Source of the DNA: Candidatus Micrarchaeota archaeon
Lineage (GTDB): Archaea; Micrarchaeota; Micrarchaeia; Norongarragalinales; UBA8480
Reading direction: 5' to 3'
DNA: 13,990 nt
Assembly (NCBI GenBank): GCA_043805855.1
Contig: JAZDHP010000056.1
Span: forward strand, 1-13,990
Shown: one piece after another, positions 2,176-11,651 of the stretch
Layout: the number at the start of each line of letters is the position of its first letter
Numbering within the stretch: the stretch's first letter is position 1
Translations under genes and position numbers: made by a program
Notes under the pieces: model-generated
What the model was told of the DNA's origin: nothing
Databases searched by the model: none
The model's input: only the letters and a program-made list of their open reading frames with translations

Positions 2176-2234
2176 CTCCGCACACCTAATAAAAATGCGG
2201 GAATAGCAAAGCGGTCAAATGCAGTAGACTCAAG

Positions 2235-2356
2235 ATCTGGCTTTTCTTTTTAGAAAAAAGAAAAGACCAAGGGAATCAGCAAAAACCATAGGTTTTTGTC
2301 TGAGTCACAAATCTATGCGATTTGTGCTCAAAGAAAAACATTACTGCAAATGAGCG
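2235..2356 (+). other. tRNA intron 1, canonical position 37/38, 122 nt
   Basis: Central helix CTCA(2229-2232)/TGAG(2351-2354), 3-nt bulges AG|A and CG|A, and the anticodon stem as outer helix. The inner helix is weak. The intron contains three hairpins. Confidence 0.88.
2275..2330 (+). repeat. Double-hairpin element, copy 1 (inside tRNA intron 1)
   Basis: ATCAGC-AAAAACC-ATA-GGTTTTT-GT-CTGAGTCACAAA-TCTATGCGAT-TTGTGCTCA. It shares three invariant blocks and the fold with 5627-5684. Confidence 0.8.
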
Positions 2357-2381
2357 ATCTACTCTCTTAGGAGTTCGAGGG

Positions 2382-2442
2382 AAATCTTTTTTCTTTTATA
2401 AAAAGAAAAAACATTTATGAAAAAAGAAAAGAGGTTCTCGAA
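2382..2442 (+). other. tRNA intron 2, non-canonical position 53/54, 61 nt
   Basis: Perfect central helix CGAG(2376-2379)/CTCG(2437-2440), 5' bulge GG|A, 3' site AA|T, inner helix AATC/GGTT that can extend. Removal places TTCGAA directly after G53. Confidence 0.85.
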
Positions 2443-2448
2443 TTCGAA

Positions 2449-2477
2449 ACGTTTTTTCACAAGAAAAAACGCAGAAC
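2449..2477 (+). other. tRNA intron 3, non-canonical position 59/60, 29 nt
   Basis: Bulge AA|A is followed directly by the 9-bp hairpin CGTTTTTTC-ACAA-GAAAAAACG. Central helix TTCG/CAGA has one C-A mismatch, the 3' bulge is AC|T, and the T stem is the outer helix. Confidence 0.78.
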
Positions 2478-2620
2478 TCCCTCTTCCCGCACTTCTTCTT
2501 TACCTGAGATCCGCACATATTTGTAAACTCTACCTTCGCATGACTGAAGCACTAGTTCTTTTTAAACTCTGCTTTAGTTTGGCAATCTCCTAAGTGTACT
2601 TTGGTGTTTGTCGTGTTTCC

Positions 2621-2638
2621 GCATTTCCGCGGAAATGC
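2621..2638. repeat. Perfect 18-bp palindrome, possible operator
   Basis: GCATTTCCGCGGAAATGC lies about 15 bp upstream of CTATAAAT (2654-2661). Confidence 0.6.
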
Positions 2639-2687
2639 ACCGTCTGTCCAGAACTATAAATGCCTTTTCTCAATCAAACGTTTTGCA

Positions 2688-2888
2688 ATGGTTGACACTA
2701 ACCTTTTGTTGAATCTCCTCGAACAAATTCCAGCAGAAGATATAACAGTTCGCGGTTTGAGCTACAAAACCAAAATTGATAGAAGAACAGTTAAAAAATA
2801 CATAGAAGTAGCTCTTAAAATTCAAAATATGAAAAAAATTATCAAAAGCCAAACGGGATTACGCTTTTTTATAAAAAAGGAACAATAG
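2688..2888 (+). CDS. Small HTH DNA-binding protein (66 aa)
   Basis: ITVRGLSYKTKIDRRTVKKYI is an HTH-like pattern. ATG 2688 has a TATA box (2654-2661) at suitable spacing and is preferred over TTG 2601. Confidence 0.6.
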   Translation: MVDTNLLLNLLEQIPAEDITVRGLSYKTKIDRRTVKKYIEVALKIQNMKKIIKSQTGLRFFIKKEQ

Positions 2889-2924
2889 CCGCAATTAAAA
2901 AAATAGCTGAACGTAAAATATAAT

Positions 2925-3143
2925 ATGACTTATGACGACTTCAGTAGCGGAAATGCTTGGATTAAAATAAAGGAAACTAATTCAATAAGCGGCACACGAC
3001 TTGATGGTATTTTTGGCGCTCTTGGCATTGGAAGTCCACACGGCCACTATGTTTCTTTTAATGAAAAACAAATTTATGTTCGAAATATTCCAACGTTAAT
3101 TGCCATTCAAGCGGGAAACACTGTAACTATTTTAGAAATTTAG
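2925..3143 (+). CDS. Hypothetical protein (72 aa)
   Basis: ATG-started ORF 36 bp after the HTH gene on the same strand. No motif recognised. Confidence 0.45.
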   Translation: MTYDDFSSGNAWIKIKETNSISGTRLDGIFGALGIGSPHGHYVSFNEKQIYVRNIPTLIAIQAGNTVTILEI

Positions 3144-3268
3144 GTACACTATAGCGTACTCTAGCGGCTGCAATAGCTGCATGGATCCAAATCACCTTTT
3201 AATAATTGGCGATTCTCGCAACATGCAAGAAGTGCCAAACGATTCAGTACAACCGCTTTAGCCAAACC

Positions 3269-3276
3269 CTTAAATA
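3269..3276 (+). promoter_or_regulatory. TATA box of the 3301-5024 operon
   Basis: CTTAAATA lies 25-32 nt upstream of ATG 3301, compatible with a leaderless transcript. Confidence 0.55.
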
Positions 3277-3300
3277 CCAGTTATATGACAATATAATGAC

Positions 3301-3954
3301 ATGACAAGCACATTATATGACAAACTCTCTGAGCGGACAAAGCGAATAGGCAAACTAGTAGCTAATAGCATGCCGCACTTGCCGTTTGCCTTGTGGGACT
3401 TGGCCGAGTTTATGCACACTTTTCACAATGTACGCCGAAATATTGTTTTCATTGAATGTGAAAAAATAGCCCACGAAGAAGTAAAGCGGCTACTAGCAAG
3501 CGATGAAGAGTTTCGCGACTGCATTGTTTATTCTGGAGAGCGTAAGCCAAAAACAGTTAATGAAGAGTGGGCTAGCGCAAAAAGTGCTGAAATTCGCGAT
3601 ATTATAGTGATAATAAGCCGAAGCGACTTCATGGAAACCAACACAGTAGCTGAAAGCAACCTTCGAGTACCCGGAATTGAACGCCGCTTGGTTGACTTAA
3701 TGGCTTACGCGATGCGGGGATACTTACCACTAACAGTTGAAGAGGCACTTGCTGCTTGGACTTGGTTTATTAAAGAAGGCGAACTACGCATTTCGTTTTT
3801 ACAGCGATACGCAACGCGTCGATACCTCGGATGGTTTCTTAGTGTATTCTTGTTTAAACTGAATAAAAACGGAGACTTAGCTAGTGTTGACCCGCGTTAC
3901 ATTGAAAACGGCAGCAAATATTACGAAGCGTTAAAACGAGTTGAGGAAATTTGA
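3301..3954 (+). CDS. AbiEi-like (DUF6577-like) putative type IV antitoxin
   Basis: LRVPGIERRLVDL resembles the AbiEi C-terminal 'v...ErtlvD' motif. PHLPFALW..EFMH..NIVFIECEK resembles DUF6577 proteins as recalled. It is coupled to the next gene by a TTGA overlap. Confidence 0.65.
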   Translation: MTSTLYDKLSERTKRIGKLVANSMPHLPFALWDLAEFMHTFHNVRRNIVFIECEKIAHEEVKRLLASDEEFRDCIVYSGERKPKTVNEEWASAKSAEIRDIIVIISRSDFMETNTVAESNLRVPGIERRLVDLMAYAMRGYLPLTVEEALAAWTWFIKEGELRISFLQRYATRRYLGWFLSVFLFKLNKNGDLASVDPRYIENGSKYYEALKRVEEI

Positions 3955-5024
3955 ACTTAGAATTTCAAAAAAGACAAAATGAAGTGCTGGAAATACTTTC
4001 GACTCTAGCACAAGAAGCAAGAGTAGCAGGAGAAACGCTTGTTTTTATTGGCGGAAGTGCGGTTCAAACCGCGGTATTGAAACAACCTCTGCGGCTTTCA
4101 ATTGACTTAGACTTATATTATTCGGGCGATGCTGAAGCTTTGCTTTCAAAACTTATTGACTATAAAATAGAAAAACGACCAACCAAACAGCAAGACTTAT
4201 TCTCTTTTTACAAAGTAATTAATGACAAAGTAGAAGTAAAAGTAGACATAGCACGTTTTTCATTAGTTAACGCAGGCAAGCCTTTTGGACTCAAGAAGCT
4301 TACTATTGGAAAAAAGTATTTTGAAGCCAACGTTGCAACACCCGATTACTTGCTTGCCTCAAAACTAGCAGCTTTAGCTATTGGCACTGTTGGCCGTTCA
4401 CCTGAAAAAGAAAGTTTTCGTTTGCTTGATTTTCTTAAAGATGTATTTGACGCAAACTGTTTGATTGACGATTTTAGCGCTGGACCGCAAATGTGGAAAT
4501 TCTTTGAACAAGTGTGCCAAATTCAAAACAACATGCGCAATACCAATTTTACATTTAGCCAGGTTATTGAAAGCGCGATGAACGCCTTGCTAGACTCCGC
4601 ATTAACCACTAATAATACAACTAGCATAGGAAAACAACACTTAAGCGAATTTCAAAACGCATATTTGCTAATTGGCGCAATCAACACTAGAGACTACAAA
4701 ATAATGACGTGCCGTTTAGCTGCTTACTTGTCGCTACTCAATCCCGGAAATGAAGAAAATAGGGAGTTCATTAAACAAATGGAACAAACCATTGCTGAAA
4801 AATACACAGACAAGCATTTCATTGAAGCTTGTGAAGCTAAACTTATAGAAATTGATTTTGAACCAAAACAGCTTCACGAACTTAAAGTAGTTGCGCCACA
4901 AGCATTAGCTTACCTTTTTGCTGCAAAGTATCCGCTTGAATTAGACAAAATAACTGATGAAAAACGCGGCTTGACCGAGGGGCTTAAAAACGGATTAAAA
5001 AGTGGGCTAAAAGATGGGCTATAA
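3951..5024 (+). CDS. AbiEii/AbiGii-family nucleotidyltransferase toxin
   Basis: LVFIGGSA...RLSIDLDL is the pol-beta NTase GG[ST]..RxSxDxD motif, followed by LASKLAAL and KDVFD. TTG start overlaps the upstream stop. Confidence 0.82.
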   Translation: MNLEFQKRQNEVLEILSTLAQEARVAGETLVFIGGSAVQTAVLKQPLRLSIDLDLYYSGDAEALLSKLIDYKIEKRPTKQQDLFSFYKVINDKVEVKVDIARFSLVNAGKPFGLKKLTIGKKYFEANVATPDYLLASKLAALAIGTVGRSPEKESFRLLDFLKDVFDANCLIDDFSAGPQMWKFFEQVCQIQNNMRNTNFTFSQVIESAMNALLDSALTTNNTTSIGKQHLSEFQNAYLLIGAINTRDYKIMTCRLAAYLSLLNPGNEENREFIKQMEQTIAEKYTDKHFIEACEAKLIEIDFEPKQLHELKVVAPQALAYLFAAKYPLELDKITDEKRGLTEGLKNGLKSGLKDGL

Positions 5025-5186
5025 TTTCCGCGGAACAAACAAGCTTACACGCAAAGTATCTACATTTACGCAACCTAGAGCAGTAACTTTGACTGCCTTC
5101 TCAGCGTTTTATTTTTCCTAACTACTTTTTTATTAACAACTAGACCATAGCCCAAAAGGCACATCTTAATCGTTTTTAGCAACTTA

Positions 5187-5194
5187 TTTATATA
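5187..5194 (+). promoter_or_regulatory. TATA box of the 5215-6874 operon
   Basis: TTTATATA lies 21-28 nt upstream of ATG 5215. An imperfect inverted repeat TGTTCAA-A-TTGATACA (5200-5215) follows it. Confidence 0.55.
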
Positions 5195-5214
5195 TGAGTT
5201 GTTCAAATTGATAC

Positions 5215-6258
5215 ATGGAACTAAGTCTTGGCAAAACGGAAATAGGGGCTTTTCAAGCACTTTGCACAATGCAAGAAGAGTGCACAGTGAACAAATTAGC
5301 TAAAGAGTTGAACCGGTCAAAGAGTTTTGTGTCGCGAGAGGCTAAATCTTTAGCCGACAAGGGGCTAATAGAAATACAGCGCAGTGGAAAGAAAAAAATA
5401 TTAATAATATCTAGAGGTCAACATGCGGTTGCTTTGAGGGAATTAATGGCAAGCAACTCACACGTACCTTTTACCGAAGTACTTAGCGGTTCAACAATAG
5501 CAGTTTTGACAGGGCTGCTTTACCAACCAGCATCGGTTGATACAATAGCTAGGTTAACTTTTACTCCAAAAATTACAGTTCGGCGCAACTTATTGCGATT
5601 GTTGAACTTAGGGGTTATAACGCGACATCAGCGTAAGGCGCGAAGCCTTACGACTGAGTCACAAAGCCAAAGGCATTGTGCTCACAAACACGAATACGCG
5701 GTAGCTTTGCATGGGTTAAGTGAATTTATACAAAAATATGCGGCGTTTGCAGTTCAAACTAGCCGGGCAAATATAACCGGTTCACTATTCGTACGTCGCA
5801 CGAGTGGCTTAATTAGAACAAATGCAAACAATATACCGAATTTCATGGTTCAAACTGGACTAAGTGTTTTTAACAAATATGGCATTGGAATAGTGCAAAC
5901 TGACTTTAAAGATTATTATTTTAACGTGTTAGAAACGCTGGTAAAAAAATTAACGCTTGAAGAAGTTTTAGTTCATGCGCTTGTAAGGACAACGGTTATT
6001 TCTAGCAGTCGGGAAGTTAGCTACGTATTACTTGTAATTGCAAAGAACCGCAAGAAACTTAACTTGAACCGTTTTCTTGAAATAGCAGGGGATTACGGCG
6101 TTGAAAGTAGTGCTAAGCAGTGTATTGAATTTGTTGACGGCGTTTTATCTGGAAAAGAGATTCCAAAGCCGCTTGTGGACTTTGGCATGAGAGCAGAGGG
6201 GCTTGTTTTTCTGGATCAAAACGAGTTTATGGAGTTGTTAAAGCAATATGACGTCTGA
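5215..6258 (+). CDS. Tandem winged-HTH (MarR/ArsR-like) protein, putative antitoxin/regulator
   Basis: wHTH1 is TVNKLAKELNRSKSFVSREAKSLADKGLIEIQRSGKKK. wHTH2 is SVDTIARL...TVRRNLLRLLNLGVIT. The gene overlaps the downstream NTase gene by 11 bp. Confidence 0.78.
   Translation: MELSLGKTEIGAFQALCTMQEECTVNKLAKELNRSKSFVSREAKSLADKGLIEIQRSGKKKILIISRGQHAVALRELMASNSHVPFTEVLSGSTIAVLTGLLYQPASVDTIARLTFTPKITVRRNLLRLLNLGVITRHQRKARSLTTESQSQRHCAHKHEYAVALHGLSEFIQKYAAFAVQTSRANITGSLFVRRTSGLIRTNANNIPNFMVQTGLSVFNKYGIGIVQTDFKDYYFNVLETLVKKLTLEEVLVHALVRTTVISSSREVSYVLLVIAKNRKKLNLNRFLEIAGDYGVESSAKQCIEFVDGVLSGKEIPKPLVDFGMRAEGLVFLDQNEFMELLKQYDV
5627..5684 (+). repeat. Double-hairpin element, copy 2 (in-frame within CDS)
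   Basis: ATCAGC-GTAAGGC-GCGAA-GCCTTAC-GA-CTGAGTCACAAA-GCCAAAGGCA-TTGTGCTCA. The stretch 5628-5684 is 57 nt, or 19 codons. Confidence 0.8.
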
Positions 6259-6874
6259 AGTTAAAATGTATTCAAACCAAGATATTGACCTGGTGTTACG
6301 AAAAGCAAGCGCGTACTTGAACAAGCAGGTTGAAGCGTTTTTAATTGGCGGCTGCGCGATGACGTTTAGAAACTTAAAGCCAGCTACAAAAGACGCGGAT
6401 TTACTGCTAGAAGATGAGCTAAGCGAACAACGGCTGTTTCAAGCGTTGCGACAAGCTGGTTTAGAAGAACTTTTTCCAGGCTCTTACCAGCAAGATGTAA
6501 AAGCTAAGGATATTTTGATTGCAGAGAATGGCTTGCAGTTTGACTTATTTGCCAAAATAGTAATGGACGGCCTAAATTTATCAAAAGGCATGAAAAGGCG
6601 AGCTGAAAAACACGCAAAGTATGGTAATTTGAAAGTGTTCATTGCTTCTAAAGAAGATATTTTCTTGTTCAAAGCAATTACCAACCGGCCTTACCCGAGA
6701 GACTTTGAAGACATGATCACTTTGCAACAAAGCGGGTTAAAATGGCCTGAAGTAATTAGCGAGTACGAAGCGCAAATCAAAGGCAAACAAATAGAACAAA
6801 ACTTAAAGAAAAAACTCACAGACTTAAAACAAACAGGCTACGTAAACCCACTAATGAAAAAACTGAACATTTAA
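6248..6874 (+). CDS. Nucleotidyltransferase, DUF6036/AbiEii-like
   Basis: FLIGGCAM...KPATKDADL NTase motif, QFDLF, and EDIFLFKAITNR..RDFED. Confidence 0.78.
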   Translation: MTSEVKMYSNQDIDLVLRKASAYLNKQVEAFLIGGCAMTFRNLKPATKDADLLLEDELSEQRLFQALRQAGLEELFPGSYQQDVKAKDILIAENGLQFDLFAKIVMDGLNLSKGMKRRAEKHAKYGNLKVFIASKEDIFLFKAITNRPYPRDFEDMITLQQSGLKWPEVISEYEAQIKGKQIEQNLKKKLTDLKQTGYVNPLMKKLNI

Positions 6875-6962: not shown

Positions 6963-7640
6963 TTAATTTTCTTCTTTTCTAATAATTCGTAAAAGCATTT
7001 TTATTAAGTGTACAATTCCTGTTAGCTCCTTTACATTTCTAGGTGCATAACTACGTTCAGATGTACGAATAAGAAACGCACTACCGCCGTGTTTTAAAAC
7101 AACTTCAGCTGCCTCCGCGTCGCTGTCATCGTCTCCAAAAAAGTAAACCTCACCCTTAACGCTTTTTAATAATTTTTCAACCGCGCATTTTTTATCATTG
7201 AGTTCAACCGGTAGAATTTCAAACGCTTTCCTGCCAACGAAAACTTTGGCATTTATGGTTTTAGCTAGCTTTTCAACCAACGCTCGGAACGCATTTACTT
7301 TTACGCCACGCGCGTTACGGTAATGCACAACTGCGCCTATTGACGTTTTTTCAATTTCAATTCCCTTTTGCCATTTGAAATTACCAGCAGTTTTCCAAAT
7401 TAGTTTAACCTGCGCTGCTTTTACTCCCACAACGTTTCCTCGGCCAGGCAAGAGCATGACAAAATGCGGCAGTTGTACACGTAAGAATTTTTTCGGTCTA
7501 CCGCTTAAAACAATTACTTTCACCCCTGCAGCGCGTAATTTTTCTAAAACTCTTAGTGTTTTCGTGGCTATTTTTACTTTTTTTGGATCACGCCGTATCG
7601 CAGCCAAGGTACCGTCAAAATCAGCTATTACCGTTTTCAT
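6963..7640 (-). CDS. otsB: Trehalose-6-phosphate phosphatase (HAD IIB)
   Basis: DFDGTL, VLSGR, IEKT..AVVHYR, GRKAFEILP..DK and FGDDDSD motifs. Located directly downstream of otsA. Confidence 0.88.
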   Translation of the reverse strand: MKTVIADFDGTLAAIRRDPKKVKIATKTLRVLEKLRAAGVKVIVLSGRPKKFLRVQLPHFVMLLPGRGNVVGVKAAQVKLIWKTAGNFKWQKGIEIEKTSIGAVVHYRNARGVKVNAFRALVEKLAKTINAKVFVGRKAFEILPVELNDKKCAVEKLLKSVKGEVYFFGDDDSDAEAAEVVLKHGGSAFLIRTSERSYAPRNVKELTGIVHLIKMLLRIIRKEEN

Positions 7641-7651
7641 TTGCTATTCAC

Positions 7652-9091
7652 TTATTGAATTACAAGAGTTTTGATGAAGTTGTCCGCCCAGTTGAAAACC
7701 GTGTTTTGCGCTACTGTTTTTTTCATTTTGTTCATGCGTTGCTTTTTTTCTACTTCTGGCATTTCAAGCGCCTGTTCAATACCTTCGGCTATATTTTCAA
7801 TTAGAAATGGATTTACTTGCACCGCTTGTTCTAATTCCTCGCTAGCACCTGCAAATTGACTTAAAACAAGCATGCCGTTTCCGTCGTTACTTGCAATGAA
7901 CTCTTTAGCAACTAGGTTCATTCCATCGTGAAGCGACGTTACAAGACAAGTATCCGCAGCGCGATATAGAGCAATTATTTCTTTTAGCGGGACAAAATCA
8001 TTTATTAGAATTACTGGTTTCCAGTCTCCAATTGAATATTTCCAGTTAACCGCATCAGTAGCTGCTAACGTGTCTTCAAGTGCTTTTTTATACTCTGGCA
8101 AATTTGTGCGAGTAGGCGCAGCGATTTGCACAAGAGTAATTTTATTAACATAGCCTGGTTTACTAGTGAACAAATAGTCCAGCGCTTTAATTTTTTCACT
8201 TATCCCCTTTGTATAATCCATTCTATCTGCCGCTACGAGCAGTTTACGATCAAGTGCTTGGTAGCGCTTTCTTATTTTTCTCACATCGTCGTCGCTAACA
8301 CTGCGCACTTGTTGTGAAACGCCTTCATAGTCAATTCCAATTGGCAGCGTTTTCACAATACATTTACTATTTTCTTTTACAATTACTTCTCTTTCATTTA
8401 CTTTGCAATCAACTAGCTTTTGAGCTGTGTAAAGGAAGTTTTTCGTGTATTCGTTTGTATGAAAACCAATTAAATCGTTTTGTAGTAGACTTTCCAGCAG
8501 TTCTTTTTTCCACGGAAATATTTTAAACGCTTCAAAGCCAGGCCAAGGTATGTGCCAAAAGAACCCCGTTTTTACAGTTGGTTTTAATTTTTTCAAATAA
8601 GCAGCACATAAACTTAACTGATAGTCATTTATCCAAACAATTGTATTGTCGGTTATTTCCTGCGCTAGGCTCTCAGCCATTTTCTTATTCATTATCTTGT
8701 ACTGTTCCCACGCGTCTTCTTGAAAATGAGGCCGCACGTGGACAACATGAGACAACGGCCACAGCATAGAGTTAGACGCTAGCGCCAAGCCGCTTTCCTC
8801 TTCTTTTTTACTAAGCCAAACGCGTTTCAAAAGGTATTTATTTTCGCCGGGCGGAACGTTTACTTTATTTTTTGAATCAACAACTTCTTTATCCGCAGTG
8901 CCAAGGCCAAGTGCAACCCAAGTTCCACCGTATTTTTTCAAGAGCGAATCAAAAGCAGTTGGAACTCCGCCGGCAGTTCCCCGGCAGTGTATTTCACCGC
9001 CATGATAATAGTGAGCATAAGGTTCGCTTGTCGATGCAAGTAGAATTTTATTGTCCTTTAAAATCTCGTCAATTGTTTTTTCATTTGCCAT
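7652..9091 (-). CDS. otsA: Trehalose-6-phosphate synthase (GT20)
   Basis: AGGV, LWPLSH, WINDYQL, FFWHIPWP, DLIGFHT, DRMDYTKGI, SLHDGMNLVAKEF and LSQFAGA motifs. Confidence 0.95.
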   Translation of the reverse strand: MANEKTIDEILKDNKILLASTSEPYAHYYHGGEIHCRGTAGGVPTAFDSLLKKYGGTWVALGLGTADKEVVDSKNKVNVPPGENKYLLKRVWLSKKEEESGLALASNSMLWPLSHVVHVRPHFQEDAWEQYKIMNKKMAESLAQEITDNTIVWINDYQLSLCAAYLKKLKPTVKTGFFWHIPWPGFEAFKIFPWKKELLESLLQNDLIGFHTNEYTKNFLYTAQKLVDCKVNEREVIVKENSKCIVKTLPIGIDYEGVSQQVRSVSDDDVRKIRKRYQALDRKLLVAADRMDYTKGISEKIKALDYLFTSKPGYVNKITLVQIAAPTRTNLPEYKKALEDTLAATDAVNWKYSIGDWKPVILINDFVPLKEIIALYRAADTCLVTSLHDGMNLVAKEFIASNDGNGMLVLSQFAGASEELEQAVQVNPFLIENIAEGIEQALEMPEVEKKQRMNKMKKTVAQNTVFNWADNFIKTLVIQ

Positions 9092-9093
9092 TT

Positions 9094-10152
9094 TTATTTT
9101 CTCGAGGACTTTTTGTCAATAAAGTGTACTGTGCGTTGTGGGAACGGAATGTTAATACCTGCTTTTTTATAAGCTGTGTGAAGCGCTTTTACAAATTCAT
9201 GGGTAACTAAATACTGGTCAGTGAATTCCTTTACCCGCAAAATTATGGAAAAGTGTATGCCATTATCTCCAAAAGTATTGTAACGTATAAATGGGTCGAA
9301 ATTAGGCACTGCCCCTTTTGTTTTCTTCTGAATTAAACGCGCGGTTTCGATTGTTATTTTTTCAACTTTTTCTAAATCACTATCGTAGGAAACACTACAG
9401 GGAATTACAATAGACATATCCATTGTTGGCGCATAGTAATTAACAATCATAGCTTGCGCCATTTTGGAATTTGGAACAATTATCAAGTTGTTTGACAAAG
9501 TACGTATTTGCGTACTACGCCAGCCTATTGAAACCGCGTAGCCTTTTTGTCCATTTTCTAGTTCAATATAGTCGCCGACTTTTATCGGTCGGTCAACTGT
9601 CAAGTATACTCCCGCAAAGAAGTTAGAAAGCGTATCTTGAAAAGCAAGGGCAATTGCAAGGCCCCCAATTCCCAAAGCGGCGATTATTGGCGTTATTTCA
9701 ATACCCAAAGTACGCAAGATCATCGTTGCAGTTAGTACAATTATTATAACTTGGCCAATTCTGTGAGCGGTTGAAATAACTTCTTCCATTTTGTGCTTGC
9801 TTTTAGCGGCAACTTCTTCATTATACCATGCAACCATTGCATCTAGAAGCTTGGACAAAGTATAAGCAACTAGCAAAATTATAGCTATTTCAAAAATTGT
9901 TGACTTTATTGCAAGGCTCGTCAAACTAGTGTATTCAATCCCAATATGGAGCCCGATTATTATTAATGCAAAGTGAAGTGGATTTTCAATAGCATCTACA
10001 ATTTTGTCATCCAAAATAGTTTTGGTTTTGGAGGTTATTTTCTTCGCGGAAATTATTATTAAATGGTAAATAATCTTCGAAGCTATTAACGAAATCGCTA
10101 TTGTTGCAAATAGAATTACTATATCATCAAACGTAAACGGAATTGAAATCAT
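9094..10152 (-). CDS. mscS: Small-conductance mechanosensitive channel
   Basis: N-terminal TM helices, ALGIGGLAIALAFQDTLSNFFAG, PIKVGDYI, IGWRSTQIRT, VPNS and GINIPFPQR. Confidence 0.95.
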   Translation of the reverse strand: MISIPFTFDDIVILFATIAISLIASKIIYHLIIISAKKITSKTKTILDDKIVDAIENPLHFALIIIGLHIGIEYTSLTSLAIKSTIFEIAIILLVAYTLSKLLDAMVAWYNEEVAAKSKHKMEEVISTAHRIGQVIIIVLTATMILRTLGIEITPIIAALGIGGLAIALAFQDTLSNFFAGVYLTVDRPIKVGDYIELENGQKGYAVSIGWRSTQIRTLSNNLIIVPNSKMAQAMIVNYYAPTMDMSIVIPCSVSYDSDLEKVEKITIETARLIQKKTKGAVPNFDPFIRYNTFGDNGIHFSIILRVKEFTDQYLVTHEFVKALHTAYKKAGINIPFPQRTVHFIDKKSSRK

Positions 10153-10182
10153 TTTAGAAAACGTATATACTTAGTTTGTTTG

Positions 10183-10190
10183 TTAATAAA
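10183..10190 (-). promoter_or_regulatory. TATA box of mscS-otsA-otsB
   Basis: Minus-strand TTTATTAA lies 31-38 nt upstream of the mscS ATG. Confidence 0.45.
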
Positions 10191-10200
10191 GCCTTACACG

Positions 10201-10233
10201 TTCCACGATTGTGGATGTGCTTTTCCACGATTG
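10201..10233. repeat. 11-bp direct repeat TTCCACGATTG x2 in the divergent promoter
   Basis: Copies at 10201-10211 and 10223-10233 (22-bp period). The first is part of the palindrome TCCAC-GATT-GTGGA. Confidence 0.6.
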
Positions 10234-10280
10234 ACGAACCTAGTTGGTTAAATGCTAAGGCACCTTAATGAAATGCACTT

Positions 10281-11651
10281 ATGTCAAAACTTCACCATTA
10301 CGCTGAAATTGTAGGCGAAGAAAAAATTGAAGAAATTGAAAACCTCGGCTCTATTTTAAGCGAAAAATCAATGGCACACGTCAATGCTACTTTTTACGGC
10401 GGAGGAGTTGCAGAGATGCTTAACACCTATATCCCCCTGTTAAACGAAGCTGGTTTAAAAACCGAATGGCGTTTACTTAAGGGTAGCCGGGAGTTTTTTA
10501 ACGTCACGAAAAAAATGCACAACGCACTGCAGAGCGACAAAGTAAGTTTTTCAAAACAAGAACTTGAGTGCTATGAATCTACACTTGAAATGAACTCCTT
10601 AATTTCAAACTTAAATTGGTATGACTGTGTTGTTATTGATGACCCGCAACCGTGCGGATTGATTAACTTATATTCTCGCGAATCCCCCTCACTATGGAAG
10701 CCGCTTCCGGAGTTTTTACGCTTACCCATCCTGCAAAAAAAACAACCATGGGTTTGGCGAGTTCACATTGACTTATCTAACCCCAACCCTGCGCTTTGGC
10801 ATTACTTGAAAAAGTTCATAAAAAATTACGATGCAGTTGTAGTTTCGCACTTAAGCTATGCTACTGATATTTCTCGCCCAATTTTTGTGATGCCACCCGC
10901 AATTGACCCGCTAGCTGACAAAAACCGCTACCTCTCTGAAACCCAGGTTAACAAAATTCTTGAAAAACATGGAATTGACAGCAAGAGTGACGTTCCGCTA
11001 GTTACGCAAGTTTCTCGTTTTGACCCATGGAAAGATCCACTAGGAGTTATACGCGCGTTTAGAAAAGTACGCAAGTCACAAAAGTGCCAGTTGGTGTTAA
11101 TTGGAAGTATGGCGGCTGATGACCCCGAAGGTGGCGAAGTCTTCAACCGAATTTACCGCGCCGCTCAGCAAATGAAAGACGTTACTTTGATAACCGCACA
11201 AGATGACTTGCTGGTAAATGCATTGCAGCGCAAATCCGCCGTTGTAGTGCAAAAATCCATTAGAGAGGGATTTGGGCTAACTGTAAGCGAAGCCCTATGG
11301 AAAGGCACTCCTGTTGTCGGAGGAAACGTGGGCGGCATACCCTTGCAAATTAAAGACGGAGTTAACGGCTTTTTAGTTTCCAGCGATGCCGAATGCGCCG
11401 ATAGAATTGAATACTTGTTGAAAAACCCGAAAAAAGCAAGGGAAATGGGCGCAAATGGACGGGAAAACATTAGAGAAAATTTTTTGATAACGCGATTAGT
11501 TAAAGATGAATTGAACCTCTGTCGCGCAGTTACTGGACTTGCAGGAACTTCAAGTTTAATGAACGCGCCGCAGGACATTTTTAGAAGACTAACTCACGTG
11601 AAAAAGTTATTTCCGTTCAAAAACATTGCAAAGTTCATAAACGACGTTTAA
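10281..11651 (+). CDS. treT: Trehalose glycosyltransferring synthase TreT-like (GT4)
   Basis: HVNATFYGGGVAEML, FFNVTKKMHNALQ, DPQP, WVWRVHIDLS, PAIDPL..KN, QVSRFDPWKDPLGVI and QKSIREGFGLTVSEALWKG. Confidence 0.9.
   Translation: MSKLHHYAEIVGEEKIEEIENLGSILSEKSMAHVNATFYGGGVAEMLNTYIPLLNEAGLKTEWRLLKGSREFFNVTKKMHNALQSDKVSFSKQELECYESTLEMNSLISNLNWYDCVVIDDPQPCGLINLYSRESPSLWKPLPEFLRLPILQKKQPWVWRVHIDLSNPNPALWHYLKKFIKNYDAVVVSHLSYATDISRPIFVMPPAIDPLADKNRYLSETQVNKILEKHGIDSKSDVPLVTQVSRFDPWKDPLGVIRAFRKVRKSQKCQLVLIGSMAADDPEGGEVFNRIYRAAQQMKDVTLITAQDDLLVNALQRKSAVVVQKSIREGFGLTVSEALWKGTPVVGGNVGGIPLQIKDGVNGFLVSSDAECADRIEYLLKNPKKAREMGANGRENIRENFLITRLVKDELNLCRAVTGLAGTSSLMNAPQDIFRRLTHVKKLFPFKNIAKFINDV

Follow-up and report, generated by a model that had tools for sequence, protein, structure and literature searches.

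The window analysed here is the whole stretch of 13,990 nucleotides that makes up contig C56 (JAZDHP010000056.1) of assembly G000 (GCA_043805855.1), a Candidatus Micrarchaeota genome of 1.03 Mb in 67 contigs, with 41% G+C and a completeness of 92%. It carries two copies of a short element composed of two adjacent hairpins, one located in an intron of a tRNA-Leu(CAA) gene and the other inside a gene encoding a winged-helix protein. We consider that both stretches are probably copies of a DNA mini-element of 51-58 bp that is mobile but non-autonomous and consists of a fixed frame and two perfect palindromic hairpins that vary freely. The elements and the genes that host them are as follows.

2276-2330, plus strand: copy 1 of the double-hairpin element, 55 nt, 68.8 bits with the covariance model R1; TCAG 2276-2279, stem-loop A 2280-2298, bulge T 2299, CTGAG 2300-2304, T 2305, stem-loop B 2306-2326, CTCA 2327-2330
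5628-5684, plus strand: copy 2, 57 nt or 19 codons, in frame and stop-free, 65.7 bits with R1; TCAG 5628-5631, stem-loop A 5632-5652, bulge A 5653, CTGAG 5654-5658, T 5659, stem-loop B 5660-5680, CTCA 5681-5684
2197-2491, plus strand: tRNA-Leu(CAA) gene with three introns; exons 2197-2234, 2357-2381, 2443-2448 and 2478-2491
2235-2356, plus strand: anticodon-loop intron of 122 nt at position 37/38, with putative limits, containing copy 1; as read from the sequence, its ends can form a bulge-helix-bulge
2382-2442 and 2449-2477, plus strand: second and third introns, of 61 and 29 nt, with putative limits
5215-6258, plus strand: host gene of copy 2, 347 amino acids, TrmB-type winged helix and HVO_2833_C domain (Pfam)

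Architecture and distribution of the element

Both copies are built on the same frame, in which TCAG is followed by stem-loop A, one bulged base (T or A), the pentamer CTGAG, a T, stem-loop B and CTCA. The left foot TCAG pairs with the central CTGA and the right foot CTCA pairs with the central TGAG. Because both basal helices use the same TGA, only one of them can form at a time. A sequence-only reading of the window had recognised the pair by three common blocks, and these were found where it had placed them: ATCAGC at 2275-2280 and 5627-5632, CTGAGTCACAAA at 2300-2311 and 5654-5665, and TTGTGCTCA at 2322-2330 and 5676-5684, with a spacing of 10 nt between CTGAGTCACAAA and TTGTGCTCA in either copy. 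Its description of the hairpins was also accurate. Four of the seven positions in the inner arms of hairpin A differ between the copies and complementarity is kept, and either hairpin has a 4-bp foot (TCAG/CTGA or TGAG/CTCA) and a single bulged base, the two feet having TGA in common. Only the limits had to be adjusted, since the location was right and the exact starts, 2276 and 5628, lie one base inside those proposed before. The window has two occurrences of the core pattern, and 200 dinucleotide-preserving shuffles gave none.

At the genome level, the exact core pattern was present 12 times, compared with no occurrence of a reversed control pattern. A strict structural search of G000 gave 13 copies, in which 98.8% of 247 cells were paired, a percentage that is biased upward because these copies were chosen for the folding of both hairpins; compensatory changes are free of this bias. 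Changes on both sides were detected at 12 of the 19 pairs, a covariation result that none of 500 shuffles reached, and slid controls of the 13-copy alignment were only 26-43% paired. The covariance model R1, built from the 13 strict copies, produced 48 matches in G000 at E <= 0.01, which corresponded to 25 loci once both strands were merged. The reverse strand also matches R1, always with a lower score, because the element is nearly symmetric. Foot-plus-hairpin units were never solitary: all 60 lay inside double-hairpin loci, and five shuffled genomes gave none.

The copies of six genomes were then parsed in 44 rows, of which one was dropped because it had no recognisable centre and a few variant ones were imperfectly parsed. 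The 43 resulting copies measured 50-58 nt, with a mode of 54 nt (15 copies), and the length was a multiple of three in 21 of them. One 19-nt hairpin occupies position B in two G000 copies and position A in one G001 copy, and therefore the hairpins are interchangeable between positions. No match at either copy of the window was obtained by an Rfam cmscan of the whole window with E up to 1, which only gave one sub-threshold snoRNA-like match at 10532-10598, and no match to the end of a known insertion sequence was obtained in the searches made. All in all, the family anticipated by the sequence-only reading, conserved in structure and variable in sequence, does exist: rather than two isolated copies, there are 25 loci in G000, further copies in relatives and, as described below, base-exact empty sites.

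A scan of the order with R1 at E <= 1e-4 revealed matches in six of 68 genomes, with 25 loci in G000, 14 in G001, three in G002, two in G003 and one each in G010 and G026. The first four genomes constitute one genus; G010, which belongs to another genus of the same family, and G026 are outside it. When one genome per prokaryotic species was scanned with the pattern, 31 stretches were recovered, 20 in archaeal metagenome-assembled genomes (MAGs) and 11 in bacteria. With the exception of one hairpin, the archaeal stretches had real stems, 5-10 bp long. The bacterial stretches were discarded, as their "stems" pair over 2-4 bases only and their number fits a rough estimate of ~11 chance matches. 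Four further archaeal MAGs that had given no score in the scan of the order, G068, G069, G070 and G071, contained 8, 1, 2 and 14 R1 matches, respectively. Their frame is identical to that of G000 and their stem types are new. The distribution of the copies across archaeal genomes is patchy, with bursts.

Sites of insertion

Comparison with orthologous genes identified two empty sites at base resolution. The first corresponds to a 54-nt TCAG...CTCA copy in a Whirly-domain gene (Pfam) of G000 contig C10, which is missing from the orthologues of G001, G002 and G003, whose flanks align. The second corresponds to a 51-nt copy, in reverse orientation, in the MTAP-type phosphorylase gene of G010; exactly 51 nt are missing from the orthologues of G008 (90% amino acid identity) and G004, where the empty site reads GGAA^TTCC. 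The gap is exactly TCAG...CTCA at both sites, the two targets differ in sequence and no target duplication is present at either of them. A boundary ambiguity of 1-2 nt at the MTAP site was not sustained across other copies, whose flanking bases vary. These results show that the element is gained or lost as a single unit whose exact limits are TCAG and CTCA, without target duplication and in either orientation, and that it occupies sites between genes, in tRNA introns and inside genes. The flanks of the copies were more structured than random sites (-16.1 vs -9.4 kcal/mol, p = 3e-10). As a separate observation, the Whirly-domain gene of G004 (C22, L092) carries an unrelated 21-nt insert at the exact point of the G000 element, where the protein seems able to accommodate insertions more than once.

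As regards copy 1, ARAGORN identified the exons, once spliced in silico, as an 83-nt tRNA-Leu(caa), and neither ARAGORN nor Rfam detected a tRNA in the unspliced window. The second and third introns are located at positions about 53/54 and 59/60. In the predicted bulge-helix-bulge of the first intron, CTCA 2229-2232 would pair with TGAG 2351-2354, leaving 3-nt bulges at 2233-2235 and 2355-2357. The tetranucleotides of this 4-bp helix are the same as those in the foot of hairpin B, a coincidence that is probably due to chance because the first tetranucleotide is fixed by the anticodon loop. The orthologous tRNA gene of G002 has the same exons and three introns. An earlier suggestion that the element may drive tRNA intron expansion holds in part: the element accounts for 55 of the 122 intron bases and the G002 intron at 37/38 measures 72 nt without it, but the two introns differ almost everywhere else, share little beyond their ends and do not provide a clean empty site. 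Even with introns allowed, ARAGORN found no more than 10 tRNA genes across G000, which is 92% complete, and hence most tRNA genes of this genome appear to be heavily interrupted.

Copy 2 encodes residues about 138-157 of its host protein. Five homologues from relatives, with identities of 26-40%, all lack 18-19 residues exactly at this place. An AlphaFold2 model of the host protein, obtained from a six-sequence alignment (mean pLDDT 82.5), located the insert between strands 135-139 and 159-163 of a second winged helix, with pLDDT values below 50 at 144-155 and of ~90 on either side. According to this model, the insert is a floppy tip on the wing loop. The two copies of the window lie in a tRNA intron and in a protein loop, the kinds of tolerant site that had been supposed. 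The three confirmed in-gene copies measure 57, 54 and 51 nt; all three are multiples of three, in frame and stop-free. These properties would be needed for translation and not for precise removal from RNA, and with three cases we regard them as suggestive. Two further candidates, on G000 contigs C67 and C9, lie in open frames with no family match or with homologues only beyond the element, and were counted as intergenic.

Mode of movement and alternative explanations

Our verdict is that the element is a non-autonomous mobile element of the kind represented by Rickettsia palindromic elements (RPE), REP and MJRE. Because no mobilising enzyme was found, we infer its mechanism. The element would move as DNA. 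A trans-acting enzyme would recognise the invariant frame, namely the two feet of 4 nt, the two bulges of one base each and the central CTGAG, either in a folded single strand or in a cruciform. Since each terminal foot is complementary to this one pentamer at the centre, folding can place the two ends of the element at a single junction; cleavage could occur there, with seamless rejoining of the flanks. Folded DNA is what the HUH transposases of IS200/IS605 and REP elements read, and an enzyme acting in this way would account for the missing duplication and for a shape that is conserved over sequence. Copies would survive only where harm is small. In tRNA-Leu, the splicing endonuclease would remove the intron that carries the element; inside genes, only in-frame, stop-free copies would persist, translated as a surface loop of 17-19 residues rich in Ser, Ala, Gln and Glu. 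A more specific proposal, which we consider rather unlikely, is that the frame is the substrate of a novel transposition activity, with a housekeeping, host- or virus-supplied enzyme cutting both ends at a single folded junction and resealing the donor scar-free. If this were true, G000, with ~1 Mb and no transposase found, would be the smallest search space for the mover.

Several results weigh against a mobile element. The 92%-complete G000 was searched for five families, Y1_Tnp (PF01797), the TnpB zinc ribbon, RVT_1, rve and DDE_Tnp_1, without a match, and the genus in which most copies occur yielded no Y1_Tnp match in any of its four genomes. The flanks revealed no conserved target motif, since the three bases on either side vary among the 43 copies. 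Insertion into the loops of other hairpins, suggested by several cases, was rejected because junction-spanning pairing was not enriched overall (8.3 vs 8.1 pairs, p = 0.39). Stems differ widely between copies yet remain perfect, for which simple copy-and-drift gives no explanation, and the copies are not near-identical, unlike those that follow a recent burst. Finally, the transcription and translation of the in-gene copies are predictions. With respect to the stems, it is possible that one arm is copied from the other during transfer, or that repair within the palindrome restores pairing. With respect to the enzyme, the window contains no transposase gene, linked Y1/HUH or other, in agreement with the sequence-only reading, and the mover has to be described as not found in G000, not as absent.

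Among the alternatives, the one that survives best is a derivative of the IS200/IS605 type (PATE or REP-like), in which a Y1 HUH transposase or RAYT would move single-stranded hairpin DNA and the enzyme would be unassembled, extrachromosomal or recently lost. The lack of target duplication at either empty site is consistent with it, as are hairpins with one extrahelical base and fixed 4-nt feet, which resemble the anatomy of IS200/IS605 ends. Moreover, 13 of 41 relatives have Y1_Tnp genes, among them both copy carriers outside the genus, G010 and G026, and the G000 genome is only 92% complete. These arguments are countered by the lack of Y1_Tnp matches throughout the genus and of TnpB zinc ribbon matches in G000, and by the lack of a conserved target tetranucleotide 5′ of the element. 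In addition, R1 was run over the surroundings, 28,978 bases in total, of nine Y1 genes or gene fragments in relatives and gave no match better than E = 1. We find an IS200/IS605 origin doubtful. A repeated hairpin weakly like hairpin B plus its foot was seen in G026 near partial Y1 genes (L083:1641-1687 and 2251-2297, L082:1872-1918; R1 E ~1.3, not significant). This hairpin is a lead on a possible IS200/IS605 link and not evidence for it.

A second alternative is that the element works at the RNA level, as a module for stability, termination or protein binding, and that its copies are maintained by selection instead of being spread by transposition. In its favour, covariation is strong, many copies are close to gene starts or ends, and the invariant frame is kept across distant MAGs while the stems vary. 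However, RNA helices normally tolerate G:U and not A:C, and the 667 stem positions of the 43 parsed copies comprised 655 Watson-Crick pairs, 3 G:T, 4 A:C and 5 other mismatches. G:U is thus not favoured, and the G:T and A:C counts, about equal and near zero, point to the signature of a DNA palindrome and not of an RNA motif. Copies also occur in both orientations relative to neighbouring genes, the one inside the MTAP gene being antisense; within coding sequence, close relatives differ in whether a copy is there, and no Rfam match was obtained. An RNA-level module is for these reasons improbable. Least probable of all, and by our estimate very hard to sustain, is an intron-like element excised from mRNA and tRNA by the archaeal splicing endonuclease and a ligase, with in-gene copies that are never translated: Micrarchaeota are reported to have many unusual introns, as in work on ARMAN endonucleases, and the same element lies in a tRNA intron, but it has 1-nt bulges instead of two 3-nt bulges four bp apart, its own ends form no bulge-helix-bulge, the tRNA intron has such a motif at its own ends, outside the element, the in-gene copies are multiples of three and stop-free in three of three cases, which splicing would not need, and one of them is antisense to its host gene (MTAP).

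Neighbouring modules and known systems

Many copies of the element adjoin other repeat modules, such as GGCC-stem hairpins with a AGACCTCTGGCC-like motif. At G000 C9:21680-21780 and G001 C15:4930-5030, a fused unit of ~80 nt joins the element to a GGCC-stem hairpin and a AGACCTCTGGCC-like module. These two loci were rejected as orthologous copies with different stems, because their similarity is restricted to the ~80 nt of the element and the adjoining module and the places are not syntenic. As the fused unit recurs at non-syntenic places, some copies spread by hitch-hiking in larger repeats. A composite of ~150 nt, with four to five hairpins and similar outer motifs, is found at five G000 loci, in short spacers beside housekeeping genes (ftsZ, histone, aminoacyl-tRNA synthetase, HIT).

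C1:2400-2620: ~150-nt composite, G000
C4:7050-7300: ~150-nt composite, G000
C8:43400-43650: ~150-nt composite, G000
C31:2650-2900: ~150-nt composite, G000
C40:2100-2350: ~150-nt composite, G000

The possibility that the larger composites are the ends of a gene-carrying mobile element was discarded, as their neighbours encode FtsZ, a histone, an aminoacyl-tRNA synthetase, HIT and a dCTP-deaminase-like protein. In G068 (L137, L139, L141, L143, L145, L147, L149), the frame is the core of a different composite of ~170 nt. Several of the G068 composites lie at contig ends, as expected of a repeat that breaks assemblies, and no open reading frame is common to their flanks. This mosaic of repeat modules around the copies resembles the arrangement of bacterial BIMEs.

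The window contains other features that are independent of the element.

2239-2268, plus strand: polypyrimidine/polypurine hairpin module in the 37/38 intron of tRNA-Leu(CAA), a repeat family distinct from the double hairpin

Hairpins of this cttttctttt...aaaagaaaag type were observed in tRNA introns at 2239-2268 and 2380-2432. The region 2239-2275 matches several contigs of G001 and G003, and the region 2371-2451 has matches at 17 other places in G001-G003. The window also holds two adjacent gene pairs of the toxin-antitoxin type, one at 3301-5024, composed of DUF6577 and an AbiEii nucleotidyltransferase, and the other at 5215-6874, composed of the winged-helix host of copy 2 and a gene with a weak match, below the cut-off, to the DUF6036 nucleotidyltransferase. 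They are followed at 6963-11651 by a cluster for a trehalose-phosphatase, a GT20 trehalose-phosphate synthase and a TreT-type trehalose synthase, with a gene for an MscS-type channel between them.

Transposase-free palindromic mini-elements inside genes are known (RPE, MJRE, SMR), and the question of what mobilises them is an old one. In the present case, the range in which to look for the mover is narrowed by a small and sharply bounded element, two exact empty sites, a frame conserved across distant MAGs and a host of ~1 Mb with no match for five transposase or reverse transcriptase families. The case also shows such inserts adding protein loops and, in part, lengthening tRNA introns in reduced symbiotic archaea. 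In literature searches, no publication was retrieved that deals with elements of this sort in Micrarchaeota or DPANN. The statement of the sequence-only reading that this is not a described family is correct for the present element in the searches made, and has to be qualified for its kind, which has precedents in RPE, REP/BIME, MJRE and SMR. What this analysis adds is a pair of empty sites resolved to the base, together with the assignment of the window copies to a tRNA intron and a wing loop.

REP, BIME and REPIN sequences of bacteria are short hairpin units with a conserved foot, non-autonomous, dispersed and often clustered with other hairpin modules. REPs are extragenic and accompanied by a Y1 (RAYT) gene; in contrast, the present element has in-frame copies in three genes and Y1_Tnp is found in 0 of the 4 genomes of its genus. 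Double-hairpin elements of fungal and other mitochondrial genomes are small and mobile, share a conserved two-hairpin fold and occur between genes, in introns and in variable portions of genes; they are organellar, unlike our element, and the likeness is one of description only. The element also differs from a classical miniature inverted-repeat transposable element, in that it produces no target-site duplication and rve and DDE_Tnp_1 have no match in G000, and from an archaeal bulge-helix-bulge intron, in that its bulges are single bases and it is the host intron whose own ends can form the motif.

With PATEs and IS200/IS605 ends as described in PMC3119063, the element shares near-terminal palindromes, the lack of target duplication and a length too short for a transposase. 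Unlike for a PATE of that description, no cognate TnpA/TnpB was found in G000, no similarity near the Y1 genes of relatives and no fixed target at the left end. The same source describes SMR-A of Haloquadratum walsbyi, of ~110 bp, with copies that are >95% identical and target PATE/IS605 palindromes; its authors call the mobilisation 'enigmatic' and find SMR-A unrelated to any transposon end (PMC3119063). Both SMR-A, in that account, and the present element are archaeal, transposase-free, devoid of target duplication and often nested in other palindromic repeats (PMC3119063). The present element is half the size, its stems vary and loop targeting is unsupported. The MJRE of Methanocaldococcus jannaschii (Suyama, Lathe and Bork 2005, as cited in PMC2229807) are palindromic elements with coding potential. 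They are likened here by description only, as archaeal palindromic repeats that are also fused into protein genes.

The RPE described in PMC2229807 measure 105-146 bp, form one long stem-loop with terminal inverted repeats and belong to a bacterial genus. Compared with that description, our element is archaeal, measures 51-58 bp and is made of two short perfect hairpins with a fixed frame and varying stems. Our element behaves like RPE, with no relatedness implied: in both cases, a transposase-less palindromic mini-element is found in frame in conserved protein genes, as a tolerated surface segment, and also in RNA genes (PMC2229807).

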